Shown: piece after piece, positions 24,068 to 38,359 of the stretch
How positions within the stretch are numbered: the stretch's first letter is position 1
How the letters are laid out: each line of letters begins with the position of its first letter
Source: a virus
Taxonomy: Duplodnaviria > Heunggongvirae > Uroviricota > Caudoviricetes
IMG/VR virus record: IMGVR_UViG_2925897562_000001
Strand: one strand, 5' to 3'
DNA: 64,000 bases
Program-made: the position numbers and the translations under genes
The notes under the pieces: generated by a model
Database searches by the model: none
Told to the model about the DNA's origin: nothing
What the model saw: the letters and a program-made list of their open reading frames with translations, nothing else

Positions 24068-24507
24068 TTGGCTGGGGTGTATGCGTTCTTGCGTTAGCCT
24101 TAGCCGATCGCTATTTGCTAAAACGCAAGGACATCACGCATTTAGAACTTGGTGATGTGGAAATTAAACCGGGTTTCATCCGGGTGCCGTTCAAATACCG
24201 GTCTAAATTCCCGTTTTTGCGCGGCGCAACGGTCAGATATTGGATCCGCGATGTTCAGAAGCCGACGACAGTGATTGAAGGCGAACAACGTTGTTTGACG
24301 TCGGCTGAACAGGGCGAAAACAGTGAATGGTTGTACATACCCACTGAATATATGGGTAAAGGAGAGCGACTGTGGCATTTCAACGTCATGGTTACGCATG
24401 GCGACTCGTTCATTAACCCGTTGTATCGGATTTTCCCTGTTACTCAGCAAATCCGCAGAAGTTACGTAATAAATCTCGCACAGGATGTGTCAGATGACGA
24501 AAAATAA
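24064..24507 (+). CDS. lydB: antiholin LydB (147 aa)
   Basis: Translationally coupled to lydA; 147 aa as P1 LydB. Confidence 0.7.
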   Translation: MIGWGVCVLALALADRYLLKRKDITHLELGDVEIKPGFIRVPFKYRSKFPFLRGATVRYWIRDVQKPTTVIEGEQRCLTSAEQGENSEWLYIPTEYMGKGERLWHFNVMVTHGDSFINPLYRIFPVTQQIRRSYVINLAQDVSDDEK

Positions 24508-25096
24508 GTATGCAACGGTCGATTTTGACCAGGTTAATGAAAAGGGGCTGAAATCCCTTATCGCGGCGATCAATAAAACCGGTGTTACGGTAATTGAGGT
24601 TGACTCCAGCAACCGCGCAACAACGAAAGATGGCGTTAAAGTTAAAACCGCAAAGCTGGTTCTTAACGATGGACAAATTCTTGCCATACAGGTAAACGAT
24701 ACTGGCGATATATCGTCTGTGAAGCTGAATGGAAAAGCTATTCCTAACGCTCAGTCGCCGGATATCAAGACGCTTGGTACCGTCATGGGGCAAGCGGCCC
24801 GCAAAAACTCCGCAAAATTCCAGAAATCACTGATCGCCAAAGCGAAACGTGTTGCCAATCCGGTAGACAAGAAACCGGCAGTAAAATCCAACTTTCAGCG
24901 CCTGCAAGAGGCAAAACAGCGGAATGTTCAGGTGGTTGCCGCTTATAAATCAGCGCAGAACTCGGTGTCTTTCAATCAACAGCAGATCACTGATTTGCGG
25001 GCGAAGCTGGATAAGGAGACAGGCCGACTCAATAACGAAAAGGCCCGAAATGGCGAACTCAAACGCCGTCTTAAGCAACTGAAAGCAGGAAATTAA
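24485..25096 (+). CDS. hdf: Hdf, dar-operon head protein (203 aa; alternative start at 24494)
   Basis: First gene of the hdf-darA-ddrA-ddrB order; coiled-coil C-terminus. Confidence 0.65.
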   Translation: MCQMTKNKYATVDFDQVNEKGLKSLIAAINKTGVTVIEVDSSNRATTKDGVKVKTAKLVLNDGQILAIQVNDTGDISSVKLNGKAIPNAQSPDIKTLGTVMGQAARKNSAKFQKSLIAKAKRVANPVDKKPAVKSNFQRLQEAKQRNVQVVAAYKSAQNSVSFNQQQITDLRAKLDKETGRLNNEKARNGELKRRLKQLKAGN

Positions 25097-25097
25097 C

Positions 25098-27017
25098 ATG
25101 GAACAGTTCAATATCAATAAAGGGGTGACGATCAAACCTGGGCTTGACGCGCTTCCCCCGCCAGTGACTGATGATGAATATCGCGCATTAATGGCCGGTG
25201 AGGACCGCTATCTGATGACGGAATCCAACACCCTGGAGGAAATCGAGGCTACGTTCTTCTATGACACGCCGATCCACTGGTGTGCTACGGATTTACTGGA
25301 GGCGATTAGTTCTACTCGTTTGCAGTTACACCGGACCATGCAGGCATTTGTCCGGGCATTGAACCAGAAGCTGAATGGTACCGGAATCTCTGCGGGGAGT
25401 GATAAAACGGGCGATGTGGCCCAGAGCGGCGCGCGCGCGATCGGCGGCGCTGAAATTGGTCGGGCACGTAACGTTAACGGGCTGCCGGTCCTGCCAGCCA
25501 TTATTCCGCTCAGTGATGGTCAGACTATCAGCATTCTGTTTCATAGCCCGACAGCGGAAAACCGGATCACCAATAGCGATACGCTGGTTGCTTTCCAGTT
25601 CTTACTGAATAAAAAAGACGTTACTCACACCGTTGCTCCGATGAGTGGACGTGATATGACGCTGGCGCAGGTCACCATGAAACTTGCCAACCTTGCAGAG
25701 AAAAACTCGGCAAAATTCCAGCGTGCGCAGAAGAAGAAAAAAGCCCTTGTTGATGAAATAACCCAACTACAGGCTGACAGTGACCAGAAAGAGGATGCCA
25801 TGAGCGACCTCGCGGATCAGGTGGCAGCGGTAGAAGGGCAGAAGGCAGATCTGGAGCAGAAAATTAACGCTGTTGCATCGGAAGCGGATTCTCTTTATGA
25901 AGAGAATGAGCGTTTGCAGACGGAGATTGATCAGCTCAATCGCACTGGTGGGCGCGATACCATTGCTCCTGCGGGGATGACTGGTGGGTACTCTCGCGCG
26001 CTGACGGATCGCCTTGCCAGTATCAAAAATCGTATGCATATGAACGGGGAAGTGACGCTCAGTAATGGTGCATCAATGAAGCAATTCATTGAGGACGGCG
26101 AAGGGTATATCCAGTTAACCGATTCGGATGGCAGCGTGTACATGATCAAGGCTAAATCCATACAGGGTGTGGACATGGCAGATGCGATCGGCAAGCTGTT
26201 TAAAGCCTATAAAGCGGGTAATGTATCGGAATATCTGGTCCAACCAGAAGAACATAAACCGGAAAACGTCGAACCTGAACCAGCGGAGGATACCGGTAGC
26301 TCTTCGCCTGAACCAGAAGTCTCTGTAGGTGCATATCGATATGCCCTGCAAATGCGTCCGGCGGCCCCTGGCGCAATACCTGAAGGTAACAAAGCAATTC
26401 TGCCGCGCCCTGATGAAGGTGACCCGTATTATGAATATGCACGCTACGGCATTGTTACTTACGATACCCCGCTTTCTGATCAGCAAATGAGTGAGTACGA
26501 CCTGAAGTTATTGCCTCGCGAGGATTCTTTCGACTTCCTGGCGAAGACACTTACTAATGGTCCGTTTGGCAAATATGCACAAAAAGCTCTGGAGCTGGCC
26601 ACCAGCTCACCAGACGAGTTCCGCGTAATGCTGAAAACTCAGTTTCAAAAAACTTTCCCCAATATTGCGTTTCCTGGGGGCGCTGGCATCGAGAAAATGG
26701 TGCAGAGCATGATCAATGCATTGCAGGCCGAAGTCGGTGAGATTACTCAACCAGAACCGGTCCCGGCACAGCCTGATGAAACGGTTAGCGAAGCAGATGC
26801 AGAGGCTAATAAAGCCATTGAATATCTCAATAGCGTGATGGATATGCAAAGCACTGACATGGCGGAGATCCGTAACGCCCGGGGCAATGTCCGGGAAGCG
26901 ATTGCTGCCCTTCAGGCTGCCGGACGTTTTGAGGAAAACGAAGAGCTGGTTAACGGTGCTGCTCGCCACCTGGCTGATCTGCTGGTAGCAATCCAGAAAG
27001 CGGGGGTAGCGGCATGA
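25098..27017 (+). CDS. darA: DarA anti-restriction head protein precursor (639 aa)
   Basis: 639 aa as P1 DarA; operon position. Confidence 0.8.
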   Translation: MEQFNINKGVTIKPGLDALPPPVTDDEYRALMAGEDRYLMTESNTLEEIEATFFYDTPIHWCATDLLEAISSTRLQLHRTMQAFVRALNQKLNGTGISAGSDKTGDVAQSGARAIGGAEIGRARNVNGLPVLPAIIPLSDGQTISILFHSPTAENRITNSDTLVAFQFLLNKKDVTHTVAPMSGRDMTLAQVTMKLANLAEKNSAKFQRAQKKKKALVDEITQLQADSDQKEDAMSDLADQVAAVEGQKADLEQKINAVASEADSLYEENERLQTEIDQLNRTGGRDTIAPAGMTGGYSRALTDRLASIKNRMHMNGEVTLSNGASMKQFIEDGEGYIQLTDSDGSVYMIKAKSIQGVDMADAIGKLFKAYKAGNVSEYLVQPEEHKPENVEPEPAEDTGSSSPEPEVSVGAYRYALQMRPAAPGAIPEGNKAILPRPDEGDPYYEYARYGIVTYDTPLSDQQMSEYDLKLLPREDSFDFLAKTLTNGPFGKYAQKALELATSSPDEFRVMLKTQFQKTFPNIAFPGGAGIEKMVQSMINALQAEVGEITQPEPVPAQPDETVSEADAEANKAIEYLNSVMDMQSTDMAEIRNARGNVREAIAALQAAGRFEENEELVNGAARHLADLLVAIQKAGVAA

Positions 27018-27379
27018 CACTATCAGCTATTGAGTTAATGGACCTCAGCGATAAGTTGGATGCTCTGATGTCCAAAGCGGCTACCGCGAGTGGCATGGAG
27101 TTGCTGGATATCAGCGATGAAATTGACCAGATCATGCAACAGATGGGGTACGGCGCGTCCGGCGGCAGTAGTGGCGAGGAAAAACAACCTTCGGTACATG
27201 ATGGTGTGCCAAAACTGGTTGCTGATTTCCTGGCTGATAAATTCGTCGATCAGAGCACTGATGCATTTATCGGTACGTTACAGGACTTGAGTCAATATGT
27301 TGGCACATACATCGACCTGGACCAGGTTAAACAGCACACGGCGGCATGGATAGCCGCCAACATTAAAGAGGCAGCGTGA
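27014..27379 (+). CDS. ddrA: DdrA (121 aa)
   Basis: Translationally coupled to darA; acidic small protein. Confidence 0.65.
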   Translation: MTLSAIELMDLSDKLDALMSKAATASGMELLDISDEIDQIMQQMGYGASGGSSGEEKQPSVHDGVPKLVADFLADKFVDQSTDAFIGTLQDLSQYVGTYIDLDQVKQHTAAWIAANIKEAA

Positions 27380-27382
27380 CAT

Positions 27383-28722
27383 CCTCCACGCCCCGAAGGG
27401 CGTGGATTCCTGCTACGTTCAGGCTGTCGCCTGAATCATTTCGGTGGGTTCCTGCTTCAACGGGCGGCCTGACTGCACCATCCCTCCACAGGCAAGTACG
27501 GCGTGCCCCGCCGCTAAAATGTTACGAGCGCCGTTTACATCGGCGTTCGCTGTATATCCACATACCTGGCATCTGAATTTACTTTGTGACAGGCGATTTT
27601 CTTTCGCTGTATGACCACAGCACGCGCAACGCTGGCTTGTGTACGCTGGCGGAACAGCAAGCACCTGACCGCCACGCCAGAGCTGCTTGTACTCAAGCTG
27701 GCGGCGCATTTCATACCAGCCCTGATCCAGTATCGAACGGTTTAAACCTGATTTTGCCCGGACATTGCGACCCGGATGACTTATCGTTCCCGCCGCTGAC
27801 TTTGACATGTATTTAACCTTCAAATCCTCAATGACAATCATTGCGTGGTTTTTGCTGACGGTCGTTGTGACTTTGTGAAGGTAGTCCCTGCGGATATTTG
27901 CGATACGGGAATGCAGTCGCTGTATTTTGCGTTTCTGCTTCTGCCAGTTGTTGCTGAATTTGACCTTGCGGCTTAACTGTCGCTGAAGTCTCGCCAGCTT
28001 CTTCTGGTTTTTCTGAAAACTATTTACAGGTTCAAAGACTGTGCCATCTGACAGCGTGGCGAGTTTAGCCACGCCAGCATCCAGTCCGACCATTGATGCT
28101 GAAGGGTGAACAGGAGTGGATACCTCTCTTTCTGTCTGAATACTGATGTACCACTTACCGCAGGACTGGCTGACAGTAACATTTTTCACAATACCCGTGA
28201 CCTGACGGCTATTCCGGTAGCGCATCCAGCCAAGTTTCGGCAGAAAAATACGGCTGTTTTCCTGATCGAGCTTAACACCCTGCGGGTAGCGGAATGCATC
28301 ATTCTGTCCCCGCTTTTTGAATCGGGGAAAAGCTGCCCGATTCTGGAAGAAGTTTTTGTAAGCCCGCTCAAGGTCTTTCAGTGACTGTTGCAATGGCTGT
28401 GAGGGAGAATCTTTAAGCCATTCGGTTTCAGTGTCTTTTTTCCACTCAACCAACCAGGAAGCCATTTTCGTGTAAGGGATGTATTTTTTACCGGCCTCAT
28501 GATTCTCATTCTGAAGCGCCAGAGCACGGTTGAAAACGAAACGACAAGCTCCGGCAAAGCGCCTCATTTGACGCTCCTGTTGACCATCTGGTTTTAACCG
28601 GAATTTGAATGACACCTGTTGTTTCATGTCACTATTTTAAGCAAAAATAGCCGGGAGGAAAACTGTGCCTTATATCCCCACTATGAGGAGCGTAGGGGGC
28701 GGCACATTGGATAAGGCGTAAC
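27383..28722 (-). mobile_element. IS200/IS605-family element, TnpB-only (IS1341/IS609-like), inserted in the ddrA-ddrB intergenic region; ends approximate
   Basis: tnpB fills the interval; perfect subterminal hairpin TCCACGCCC-CGAA-GGGCGTGGA at 27386-27405; no terminal inverted repeats, as expected for this family. Confidence 0.6.
27419..28627 (-). CDS. tnpB: TnpB (OrfB) RNA-guided nuclease-type transposase accessory protein (402 aa)
   Basis: N-terminal OrfB domain, RuvC-like core, C-terminal zinc finger CACCGH...CQVCG. Confidence 0.85.
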
Positions 28723-28726
28723 AGGG

Positions 28727-31714
28727 ATGAGCTTAAGCGATCAGGTGGTAATGGCCACCAGCATAGAAACGCTGATCGAGCTGCTAAAGAACCTGCCCGA
28801 TTATGGGCGGGTTTCGTATGTGGTGACAGCGAAGGGAGACGAGGTAAAAACAGCGTTTGATATCGTCGATGCCTCAGCTCTTTTGGTATCCAATACTCTG
28901 GATGGGAAAATTAATCCTGACTATCCCCAGGAACTTCAACCGCGCGACCGGACCCGCGCATCCAGCCTTCTTCAGGTTAACCAGATATCCAAGGATTTGC
29001 GGCCTGCTCAGCTTACCGATTCCGGTCTATCCAGCCATGGCGCGCCGATAATTGGTGAGGACAATGCCGTTGAGTCAGGTAATGGACGGACCATGGGGAT
29101 CATTAAAGCCTATCAGGACGGCAATGCGGATCGGTATCGTGAGTACCTGATTGATCATGCGACCGAATTCGGCATACGACCTGAAAAGGTTGAATCAATG
29201 ACGGCTCCGGTACTGGTGCGCCGCCGGTTAACTAAGGTTGACCGCGTTCAGTTTGCCAAGGACTCAAATATTTCTGATCTTCAGGAAATGGCAGCCAGTG
29301 AAAAGGCTTTTGTTGATGCCGACAGCATAACACCGGCGATGATGGCGCTTTTTAACCCGTCAGAAAGCGGAGATCTGCTTAGCCGCAGTAATGACACGTT
29401 TATTCGCGGATTTATGACGCAAGTTGGTGCCACACAGGCGGCTGGCCTTGTAACTGAAGATGGGCGACCAACACGGCAACTTGTAGACCGTATACAAAAC
29501 GCGATCTTTGCCAAGGCATATAAGGATGCGCGCCTGGTAAGGATGGTTGCAGAAGAACCTGATCCGGATATGCGTAATGTTCTGACGGCGCTTAATGCGG
29601 CAGCCAATGATTTTGTCCAGATGCAGGCTTTGTCAGGAGAAGCGCACAAGCAGGCTGTGACAACTATTGTTGATGGCATTGAGACAGCGGATAGCCTCGA
29701 TAAAAAGGCGCTGGCGGCATTGAAAGATGCGGTAGACCTGGTAAGGCAATCGAAGGAGTTAGGCCAGCATATTACCGATGTTATTGCTCAGGGGGATATG
29801 TTCAGCGAAACGGCCCCGGAAGTGAAAGCACTCGCGTTGTTCATCGTCGCGAATAACCGTAGCGCGAAGCGTATGGCCACCGCCTTTAAGTTGATGGCGC
29901 AACGTATCAATGATGAGTTACAGCACCAGGGCCAGGCGCTCGGGGATATGTTTGGCGGCGGCGATGTGTCGTTACAGGATATCCTTCGCCAGGTGTCTCA
30001 GGAACTGGAAAACGAAGGCATGCAAGGGATATCCGGCGGTCTTTTCGAGTCCGTTTCCGGCGGTAGTTACAACGGTGTTGCTCCGTATACCAGTTTGCTA
30101 TTACATCGGGCATCCGGCATCAAAGACATTATTCATCTGATCAGGCTGCTTTCCCGCACAGATCCCCAGGATGAACAGCTTGTACAAGTGCTTGCGCATT
30201 TTGTTCGAATGCCTGTTGCCGACGTGAATAAATGGTGCCGATTATTCGGTATCAGCAATTCGTTACTTCGCGGATTGTTAAATCACGCATCCTCCCTTGG
30301 GCGCGACGGCTTTGATGAGATAGCGCAGGCGATACAAAACGGAGATATGCCACCAGCTATTGACTGGTTTTCCATTCGCCCAACCAGGGTGAAAGCATTC
30401 CTTAGCGCGGCGCATTCGGCATCACCATTGGCAGAAATGGTTCAGAGGTTGTCGCTCATATTCACAGACCATACCGCGTTGGGTGATCTGACTCTGGACG
30501 AGATGAAAGAAGCCTCCATTCAGTGGGCCGATCAACAAAATGAGGTTAACTCAGACTTCTTGCCAGCATTCAGGAAGGCCGTTAGTAAAGCGGATGATTC
30601 CCGTGGAATTCTGAAGGCATTTAAGGCATTGCAAAGTCGGGTTAATAAACATGTCGGAGATATCGATGGGGTAACGGCGGAAGGCAGGGATATCCTTAAA
30701 GAGCACGGCATAACGCCAGAGTTTATTGATGAGATCAGGACGGATATGCAGCGTGAGGTCGTATCGTCCCTGCAAATTGTAGCCAGAGCGTTGGCGGATG
30801 CTAATCCGAAGAGTGCGGCCATTGTTAACCGGGTTATTGGTGATATTGAAGCATCGGAGGGCATGGGGGCGCTGAAACTCTTCCTTTCGCGAGCGTTTAA
30901 TCCTAACGGCAATATTCTCCCTGGCATTATTGGTGAGGCTAAAAAGTATGTCAGTGAAGAAGAACTTGAGCAGCTTGACCAACTACTTAAGCGATTCTCA
31001 TATAACCCGCAGACACGCTGGCAAATGAATCAGCGAAGTATGGGTTCGGTCCACGAGAAAGTGTTATCTGCCATGAACAGTGCGATCGCAAACTCATCCG
31101 TATCTGAAGAAAAAGCTCTTGAGTGGGCCGACTCTTTTATCACAGAAGAAGTGGAAGAAGCCCGCGCTGGACAGAATGGTGGGATAGACCTGCGCAAGGA
31201 ACTTGCTGATATTTATCGCCTGACCGGCGGGAAAATATCGACCTTATCAAAGGTAGTTCACCACCAGGGAAGGGCATATGCAAATCTAAATGGTGTTGTT
31301 GCTGTCAATTTGAACGATGAAAATGCAAGTGCACTGTGGCACGAGCTGGGTCATCATCTTGAGTACAGTAACCCTGGTTTGTTAGAGAAAGCCCGGTCAT
31401 TCCTGAAGGCCAATGTTGAAGGGGATAAGCCATCTTTCGTTAATATCGGTGGGCGTGGCAAGCCTGAATGGTGCTTCAGATCTCGATTGAGTAATATTTA
31501 TATGGCGAAGGTATACCCGCCAGCCTCAGTAAGTAACACCGGGAAAATTCGGCAGAAATCACCGACTATTTCCAAAACGTCAGCAACGGAAGTATTCTCT
31601 ATGGCTCTTCAGTTGTATCATGACAAAGAGGCCGCTGCCGCATCACTGATGAATGGTGACGGATTGCTGGAACTGTTATTAGGTGTGGCAAAGGAGCTAA
31701 ATAATGCAGATTAA
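28727..31714 (+). CDS. ddrB: DdrB anti-restriction head protein (995 aa)
   Basis: Large ORF after ddrA in dar operon. Confidence 0.7.
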   Translation: MSLSDQVVMATSIETLIELLKNLPDYGRVSYVVTAKGDEVKTAFDIVDASALLVSNTLDGKINPDYPQELQPRDRTRASSLLQVNQISKDLRPAQLTDSGLSSHGAPIIGEDNAVESGNGRTMGIIKAYQDGNADRYREYLIDHATEFGIRPEKVESMTAPVLVRRRLTKVDRVQFAKDSNISDLQEMAASEKAFVDADSITPAMMALFNPSESGDLLSRSNDTFIRGFMTQVGATQAAGLVTEDGRPTRQLVDRIQNAIFAKAYKDARLVRMVAEEPDPDMRNVLTALNAAANDFVQMQALSGEAHKQAVTTIVDGIETADSLDKKALAALKDAVDLVRQSKELGQHITDVIAQGDMFSETAPEVKALALFIVANNRSAKRMATAFKLMAQRINDELQHQGQALGDMFGGGDVSLQDILRQVSQELENEGMQGISGGLFESVSGGSYNGVAPYTSLLLHRASGIKDIIHLIRLLSRTDPQDEQLVQVLAHFVRMPVADVNKWCRLFGISNSLLRGLLNHASSLGRDGFDEIAQAIQNGDMPPAIDWFSIRPTRVKAFLSAAHSASPLAEMVQRLSLIFTDHTALGDLTLDEMKEASIQWADQQNEVNSDFLPAFRKAVSKADDSRGILKAFKALQSRVNKHVGDIDGVTAEGRDILKEHGITPEFIDEIRTDMQREVVSSLQIVARALADANPKSAAIVNRVIGDIEASEGMGALKLFLSRAFNPNGNILPGIIGEAKKYVSEEELEQLDQLLKRFSYNPQTRWQMNQRSMGSVHEKVLSAMNSAIANSSVSEEKALEWADSFITEEVEEARAGQNGGIDLRKELADIYRLTGGKISTLSKVVHHQGRAYANLNGVVAVNLNDENASALWHELGHHLEYSNPGLLEKARSFLKANVEGDKPSFVNIGGRGKPEWCFRSRLSNIYMAKVYPPASVSNTGKIRQKSPTISKTSATEVFSMALQLYHDKEAAAASLMNGDGLLELLLGVAKELNNAD

Positions 31715-35628: not shown

Positions 35629-38359
<2,731 letters not shown>

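Follow-up and report, generated by a model that had tools for sequence, protein, structure and literature searches.

An IS609-type tnpB-only element in the last codon of ddrA of a P1-like phage-plasmid: exact ends, predicted guide RNA and possible roles

The insertion site

The stretch of viral DNA analyzed here (IMG/VR record IMGVR_UViG_2925897562_000001, 64,000 nucleotides, hereafter the window) belongs to a P1-like phage-plasmid, its region 26800–29400 being 99.8% identical to Escherichia phage RCS47. On its plus strand it carries the anti-restriction operon hdf-darA-ddrA-ddrB, with an hdf-like gene at 24485–25096 and darA at 25098–27017 (Pfam DarA_N/DarA_C and ddrB-ParB, together with the annotation of RCS47 and P1), and between ddrA and ddrB lies an insertion sequence (IS) whose tnpB gene runs antisense to the operon (Table 1). 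The first-pass annotation, made from the sequence alone, had described a TnpB-only IS200/IS605-family element at this position, a description that holds on the Pfam and NCBIfam matches of the gene and the annotation of its neighbors. The insert and its 100-bp flanks are 100% identical to a plasmid of E. coli FDAARGOS_497. Very probably, a single IS609-type element inserted 3′ of TTAT in the last ddrA codon of the common ancestor of some P1-like phage-plasmids, and was thereafter inherited and recombined.

Table 1. Features of the insert and the adjoining genes (positions in the window)
Feature	Position	Strand	Description
Whole insert	27376..28710	-	IS609-type tnpB-only IS200/IS605 element, 1,335 bp; ends from P1 alignment
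Left end, atypical	28628..28710	-	83 bp; outer stem TGTGCC/GGCACA kept; inner CCCC(T)AC...GTGGGG; no AAAA guide
tnpB (insQ)	27419..28627	-	402 aa; RuvC D183, E267, D363; zinc finger C334xxC337 + C353xxC356
Right-end subterminal hairpin	27385..27406	-	Equivalent of the imperfect palindromic repeat (IPR); GAAT (27406–27409) before; AGGATG and tip after
Right tip TCAC	27376..27379	-	Family TCAA; on the plus strand, G+TGA completes last ddrA Ala codon and stop
Predicted omega-RNA (guide RNA) scaffold	27376..27560	-	tnpB 3′ end and right end, last ~185 nt
Predicted 16-nt guide	27360..27375	-	GCUGCCUCUUUAAUGU; directly 3′ of right end; antisense to last ddrA codons
Target/predicted TAM, TTAT	28711..28714	-	ATAA on plus strand; adjoins left end; remnant of original ddrA ...A TAA
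ddrA	27014..27379	+	121 aa; protein unaltered by insertion
ddrB	28727..31714	+	995 aa; Pfam ddrB-ParB 2.1e-39; P1 annotation

Alignment to P1 defined both the exact ends of the element and its TTAT target. The empty junction of P1 reads GAGGCAGC followed directly by ATAAGGCG (extended right side, ATAAGGCGTAACACGGATG), while in the window GAGGCAGC is joined to GTGACATCC and, at the far end of the insert, CACATTGG is joined to ATAAGGCG (extended right side, ATAAGGCGTAACAGGGATG). In the orientation of the element itself, TTAT stands before CCAATGTGCC at the left end, and GGAGGATGTCAC is followed by GCTGCCTC at the right. Comparison with the exact empty sites of P1 and P7 revealed no target-site duplication at the insert. 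The span originally assigned to the element, 27383–28722, was thus slightly off at both ends. The hairpin that had been placed beside ddrA at the right end is indeed there, but the element does not begin after the ddrA stop, as had been supposed, since the insertion point lies 3′ of TTAT and splits the final ddrA codon (GC/A TAA).

The consequence for ddrA is slight. The gene ends GCA TAA in P1 and GCG TGA in the window, where the present stop codon (27377–27379) was donated by the right tip of the element; because this tip supplies both the third base of the alanine codon and the stop, DdrA is unaltered. The insert thereby offers a clean natural case of an IS200/IS605 element that entered a stop-codon context (ATAA being the complement of its TTAT target), rebuilt the stop with its own tip and left the gene unharmed. 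The family-consensus tip, TCAA, would give GCT TGA at the end of ddrA, which likewise reads alanine-stop.

From element position 100 to 1334 the insert shares ~95% nucleotide identity with the chromosomal insQ of E. coli, including that of K-12. Its length compares with a published 1,338–1,340 bp for IS609, and the TTAT left site is common to both. GenBank labels the copies in RCS47 and SJ46 insQ and that in Escherichia phage vB_EcoM-813R1 (813R1) IS609, and IS609 copies have been published in the P1-like phage-plasmids pJIE250-3 and pSvP1, with TTAT given as the left cleavage site and TCAA as the right in such plasmids (Venturini et al. 2019, PMC6906374). By its identity to insQ and by these GenBank and literature labels, the element is classed as a tnpB-only IS200/IS605 member (IS1341-type organization) of the IS609 type. 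It differs from IS609 in its diverged left ~100 nt, in lacking the left hairpin and AAAA guide, and in its right tip, TCAC instead of the published TCAA. That IS609 resides in P1-like phage-plasmids and that the gene is insQ were already known, and in its present state the finding is of little consequence: the IS is annotated, the phage lineage is known and the general role of TnpB is established. Our analysis adds to this the exact junction and the way in which it restores the stop codon, a distribution with one origin and one site, the defects of both ends, the covariation of the scaffold, and the match of the target motif and guide to empty alleles.

Distribution and origin of the insertion

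The insert was found at this site in RCS47, SJ46 and 813R1, and also in pTB502. Eight IMG/VR contigs carry the variant left end described below, all at the same ddrB junction, and every contig that reaches the right end shows the TCAC tip joined to GCTGCC. The left-end variant is present in 63 of 5,426 complete E. coli genomes, and a probe spanning flank and left-end junction likewise found exactly 63. Searched as an exact 24-mer, which diverged copies would escape, the left-end motif had no match in 185,579 species genomes (one per species). Because all copies have one and the same ddrB–left-end junction and finish in TCAC, and because one flank accounts for 63 of 63 E. coli genomes, the insertion is of single origin; on these sequence comparisons it is also old, has been inherited and recombined, and is seen at no other site.

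The presence of many related genomes with tnpB at this position and with identical flanks might be read to mean that tnpB belonged to the dar operon from the start and was lost from P1 and P7. Such relatives do exist, and their existence had been named beforehand as something that would speak against an insertion, yet the empty sites refute the idea of a resident gene, to which we attach practically no probability. A clean, uninterrupted junction is present in 388 E. coli genomes as well as in P1, P7, phi456 and Ro157; these sites are exact: TTAT is joined directly to GCTGCC, the ddrA stop is intact and the spacer is 12 nt long. In addition, the ends of the element are common to copies in unrelated replicons, and it is ~95% identical to chromosomal insQ. 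The insert thus fills ~14% of ~451 P1-like loci in E. coli, and ~86% are empty.

When copies were grouped by ~1.25 kb of flank (26810–27375 and 28711–29390), filled and empty alleles were interspersed. The filled allele of SJ46 has empty Ro157 as its nearest neighbor, at 15 differences, and for one filled contig the nearest is P7, while pairs of filled alleles differ by up to 39 flank positions. By sequence, this grouping shows a dar region that recombines among P1-like elements, and does not indicate what causes the recombination.

Right end and predicted guide RNA

The right end of the element follows the family pattern except at its tip. In ~60 relatives from the Enterobacterales and beyond, GAAT is followed by a hairpin, AGGATG and TCAA, after which the flank is unrelated. 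The hairpin in the window pairs TCCACGCCC with GGGCGTGGA around a 4-nt loop; it folds as DNA at −12.1 kcal/mol (z score −4.86), and none of 200 shuffled sequences folds as well. The perfect hairpin first noticed at 27386–27405 is therefore real, although those coordinates take in just its inner 8 bp. Compensatory changes affect five of the six stem pairs of this hairpin (helix 8 of the scaffold discussed below) among relatives. The window shares the loop TTCG (27394–27397) with RCS47 and 813R1, whereas SJ46 and pTB502 have CGAA, the reverse complement, as inversion of the hairpin would give; the stem in these two also carries a mismatch (CCACACCC). The departure from the family pattern is in the tip, for 43 of 44 aligned relatives end in GTCAA while all P1-type copies end in GTCAC. 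Because TCAC replaces TCAA, the fourth position of the tip is unpaired with GAAT.

The last ~185 nt of the element, comprising the tnpB 3′ end and the right end, have the features expected of an omega-RNA scaffold. Folded as a single sequence they reach a z score of −3.56 relative to shuffled sequences, and an alignment of 44 relatives yields 42 consensus pairs in eight helices, 18 of them with compensatory changes. Shuffled controls gave 5.8±1.5 such pairs, with none of 500 reaching 18, and slid registers gave 8–12. All of the helices are intact in the window copy. In E-value mode, Rfam returned for 26800–29300 sub-threshold matches and no membership in a curated RNA family: RAGATH-18 (RF03064; 28.1 bits against a gathering threshold of 44.9), HgcC (RF00062; 22.6 against 50) and sot0042 (RF02656; 17.8 against 88), all three within the scaffold and on the minus strand. 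These three families have been linked to TnpB guide RNAs (PMC4615843, PMC11061315). From the covariation, these nucleotides hold a structured guide-RNA scaffold, although the RNA itself is predicted. The arrangement resembles that of TnpB in ISDra2 of Deinococcus radiodurans and in the Geobacillus ISGst elements, where the scaffold likewise overlaps both the 3′ end of tnpB and the right end.

The 16-nt length of the predicted guide is borrowed from ISDra2. It had been proposed that the guide would extend into the 3′ end of ddrA, and the flank 3′ of the right end does correspond to the last ddrA codons in antisense. Directly after this predicted guide, antisense within ddrA, stands a terminator-like hairpin, TGGCGGCTATCCATGCCGCCG followed by TGTGCTGTTT (27339–27359, minus strand), which could end transcripts reading out of the right end, though terminator counts in the scan stayed at chance level (3 versus 1.9 expected).

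Left end and mobility

We compared the left end with those of three tnpB-only copies, one in a phage-plasmid-like element and one each in an IncI2 and an IncFII plasmid, all of them unrelated replicons. In these relatives TTAT is followed by CCAGTGCGCCGT, AAAA, CCCCGTCC, TTCA, GGGCGGGG and ATATAAGG, with the tnpB ATG after ~83 bp. Insertions with different flanks, namely the window and the three relatives, start with TTAT and then CCA(G/A)TG in 4 of 4 independent cases. The window copy keeps the first 11 nt, and its outer stem co-varies (TGTGCC/GGCACA, as against TGCGCC/GGCGCG in the relatives), but CCCCCTACGCTCCTCATAGTGGGG takes the place of the AAAA guide and of the canonical CCCCGTCC/GGGCGGGG hairpin. 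As DNA, its left end folds no better than shuffled sequences (−6.9 kcal/mol, z score −0.55), whereas the relatives reach −14.6 kcal/mol (z score −2.64). Divergence from other IS609 copies is much greater in the first ~100 nt, which take in the left end and codons 1–5, than in the ~95%-identical remainder.

Autonomous IS200/IS605 members need a Y1 (HUH) transposase, TnpA, which tnpB-only members lack by definition. A tblastn search with the K-12 tnpA remnant found no tnpA in the element or the 64-kb window, so that the earlier statement that none lies nearby extends to the whole window; no more than 83 bp separate the left tip from the start of tnpB. The top match of this search (E 0.005, 37880–38011) falls inside a 569-aa open reading frame (ORF) on the opposite strand and is attributable to chance. 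The chromosomal relative in K-12 has a divergent tnpA pseudogene. We considered the 83-bp left region as a scar of tnpA deletion, an idea prompted by a 66-nt pseudogene that RefSeq annotates as ‘IS200/IS605 family transposase’ in E. coli plasmid p1_000200 (2463–2528), and dropped it because the three relatives, at unrelated sites, share the short TTAT-bounded left end. The 66-nt pseudogene is probably an annotation artefact in an ordinary 83-bp left end and not a remnant of tnpA.

In IS608 of Helicobacter pylori, each hairpin is preceded on its 5′ side by a tetranucleotide that pairs with the cleavage site, TTAC with AAAG at the left and TCAA with GAAT at the right (PMC5934647, PMC3201880). 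The corresponding pairings in the IS609-type family are TTAT with AAAA and TCAA with GAAT. The two elements agree in the right end (right guide GAAT, hairpin, 6 nt and right cleavage site TCAA at the tip in the family) and in inserting 3′ of a tetranucleotide without duplication; they differ in the target (TTAC, as opposed to TTAT here) and in the left guide (AAAG, as opposed to AAAA in the relatives), and the window copy, which lacks tnpA, departs from the rule at its left end. Because it has no tnpA, lacks the left hairpin and AAAA guide, and carries TCAC at the right cleavage site, we infer that the window copy is probably unable to transpose.

Alternatively, the element might still be a mobile, non-autonomous IS served in trans by a TnpA from another locus of the host. 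Canonical-ended tnpB-only relatives occupy many sites (IncI2 and IncFII plasmids, phage-plasmids and chromosomes), which implies that the family is mobilized in this way. For the copy in question, however, such mobility is improbable: the variant occurs at one site only, its left hairpin and AAAA are missing and its right site is mismatched to GAAT, and the K-12 tnpA is a pseudogene.

The TnpB protein

The tnpB ORF matches HTH_OrfB_IS605 (1.6e-16), OrfB_IS605 (1.5e-34) and Cas12f1-like_TNB (2.4e-24) in Pfam and guided_TnpB in NCBIfam (392.7 bits, cut-off 100). The TnpB of ISDra2 (PDB 8bf8/8exa) aligns with it over its full length (E 9e-52), with D183, E267 and D363 of the window protein opposite D191, E278 and D361. 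As first described, then, the protein combines a RuvC-like core with a C-terminal CxxC...CxxC motif; the catalytic triad and both cysteine pairs are intact, so that the mutated catalytic residues that would have told against the description are not seen. The intact triad also rules out that this is a TldR, a nuclease-dead, TnpB-derived transcription factor.

Compared with the window, the same-site copies of SJ46 and pTB502 show 51 and 39 nucleotide differences, respectively, yet keep the ORF, at a ratio of nonsynonymous to synonymous substitution rates (dN/dS) of 0.19–0.22. Judged by these ratios the ORF is under purifying selection; the substitutions among copies are mosaic and partly match chromosomal alleles, so that gene conversion may contribute to the low ratio. 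In 813R1 the loss of one nucleotide at element position 270 leads to a stop at codon 83, making that copy a pseudogene, and a further 1-nt deletion lies within its left end.

Our scan of the minus strand yielded no sigma-70 promoter for tnpB, and it passed over a candidate seen by eye upstream of the tnpB ATG, TTTTCC-17-TAAAAT. Before the ATG (28628–28664, minus strand) there is no obvious Shine-Dalgarno sequence, and a conserved TAAAAT stands 6 nt upstream, likewise in the three relatives. This arrangement hints that the tnpB mRNA may be leaderless or near-leaderless.

One reading of these data is that the element is an inert relic, a decaying passenger whose TnpB and RNA are not expressed or are inactive and whose ORF has stayed open because the insertion is recent on the scale of the mutation rate or because gene conversion from chromosomal IS609 refreshes it. 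The frameshifted 813R1 copy, the degeneracy of both ends and the lack of a called tnpB promoter are in keeping with this, as are the mosaic differences between copies, which often equal chromosomal alleles, and the abundance of possible conversion donors: sequence related to insQ/IS609 occurs in 5,014 of 5,426 complete E. coli genomes, at a median of 2 places per genome. A dN/dS of 0.19–0.22 over 39–51 substitutions between same-site copies speaks against decay, together with the full set of catalytic and zinc-binding residues and the integrity of every scaffold helix in the window. We regard the relic interpretation as possible, though on the unlikely side.

Predicted targets and possible roles

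In tested IS605-family systems, the transposon-associated motif (TAM) that TnpB recognizes is the transposon target itself and the guide matches the donor joint (Meers et al.), a correspondence that the ISDra2 and ISGst proteins would share with the TnpB described here. The predicted TAM is TTAT, as compared with TTGAT in ISDra2 and TTTAT in ISGst2. P1, P7 and Ro157 carry an exact match to TTAT plus the predicted guide at their uninterrupted ddrA-ddrB junction, and phi456 carries one with a single mismatch. Within the window, the sole match to the guide is the resident site, which is preceded by TCAC rather than TTAT. Single changes in the TAM abolish cleavage by tested TnpB systems (Meers et al.). 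Because TCAC stands where TTAT would, the resident copy should be protected.

On this basis, and by analogy with ISDra2 and the Geobacillus elements, a mechanism can be proposed. TnpB would be made and would bind an RNA ending in GCUGCCUCUUUAAUGU, and the complex would cut DNA in which TTAT is followed by that sequence, i.e. the uninterrupted ddrA-ddrB junction, in the manner of the cleavage of donor joints or empty alleles described for IS605-family TnpB. A donor joint would not arise from the window element itself, which is probably unable to excise, so that the only natural targets would be insert-free P1 relatives. On a further and more speculative reading, the immobilized IS609 derivative would persist as an RNA-guided homing element or exclusion weapon among phage-plasmids instead of as a device for transposon retention: during co-residence or superinfection, TnpB-RNA would cut TTAT plus GCTGCCTCTTTAATGT in insert-free P1-like genomes, leading to homing, in which recombination turns the empty allele into the filled one, or to the elimination of a competitor. 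The drives formed by group I introns and homing endonucleases in phages offer an analogy and no more, in that a nuclease would cut the element-free allele while the interrupted allele is immune; here, recognition would be RNA-guided, and there is no intron.

We put this homing or weapon role forward as a speculation that is unlikely to be correct. Consistent with it are the exact match of TAM and guide to the P1, P7 and Ro157 junctions, the ~86% of E. coli P1-like loci that are empty and hence targetable, the shielding of the resident copy, and the interspersion of filled and empty alleles by flank despite the single origin of the insert. TnpB can, moreover, cleave IS-free copies and so aid the spread of an element (Meers et al.). 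Against these stand the highly mosaic nature of P1-like genomes, which can account for interspersion without TnpB, the limits that immunity and incompatibility place on co-residence, the filled fraction of only 14%, which means that any drive must be weak, and the occurrence of a pseudogene among the copies.

Other points weigh against parts of the main account, that of an immobile copy with a working TnpB. That the window copy should be a poor TnpA substrate and is probably immobile rests on IS608 rules transferred by analogy. The low dN/dS was possibly imported by gene conversion from chromosomal IS609, since the differences between copies are mosaic, and the 813R1 pseudogene implies that the phage can do without the protein. 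The A-to-C change in the tip lies at the junction of scaffold and guide and could affect the RNA as well as the cleavage site. The TnpB of Helicobacter IS608 was inactive in a comparable assay (Meers et al.). The literature that we searched contained no expression or cleavage data for this TnpB or for any E. coli InsQ, and searches on TnpB with phage-plasmids and on InsQ activity returned nothing specific. Whatever its present role, a seemingly non-excisable copy that combines an intact nuclease and scaffold with a target in most related phage-plasmids is a convenient natural system for the study of TnpB in allele drive or defense.

The host operon and related sequences elsewhere

The insertion has moved ddrB from 12 bp to 1,347 bp beyond the ddrA stop, leaving the sequence upstream of ddrB in place from ATAAGG onward, and ddrB, whose expression may be disturbed as first suggested, would depend on read-through across the insert. 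Promoter and terminator scans of the region gave sites at chance level (2 versus 1.9 expected and 3 versus 1.9 expected, respectively), and because these counts are no higher than chance we claim neither a tnpB promoter nor a polar terminator. The Dar proteins have an anti-restriction role and are packaged in an ordered manner (PMC12810830); ddrA and ddrB are dispensable for plaque formation by P1 (PMC10695390).

IS609-like tnpB sequence was also encountered in phages of other kinds. The filamentous phage If1 (NC_001954, 6409–7055) contains a 647-bp piece with ~96% identity that is annotated as ORF348. Morganella phage IME1369_01 has a near-complete copy, also ~96% identical, with a divergent tnpA remnant and a tnpB annotated as ‘putative virulence protein’. 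The 254-kb genome of Aeromonas phage AP1 (MT713136, 238144–238434) holds 291 bp of IS609-like tnpB at ~96% identity.

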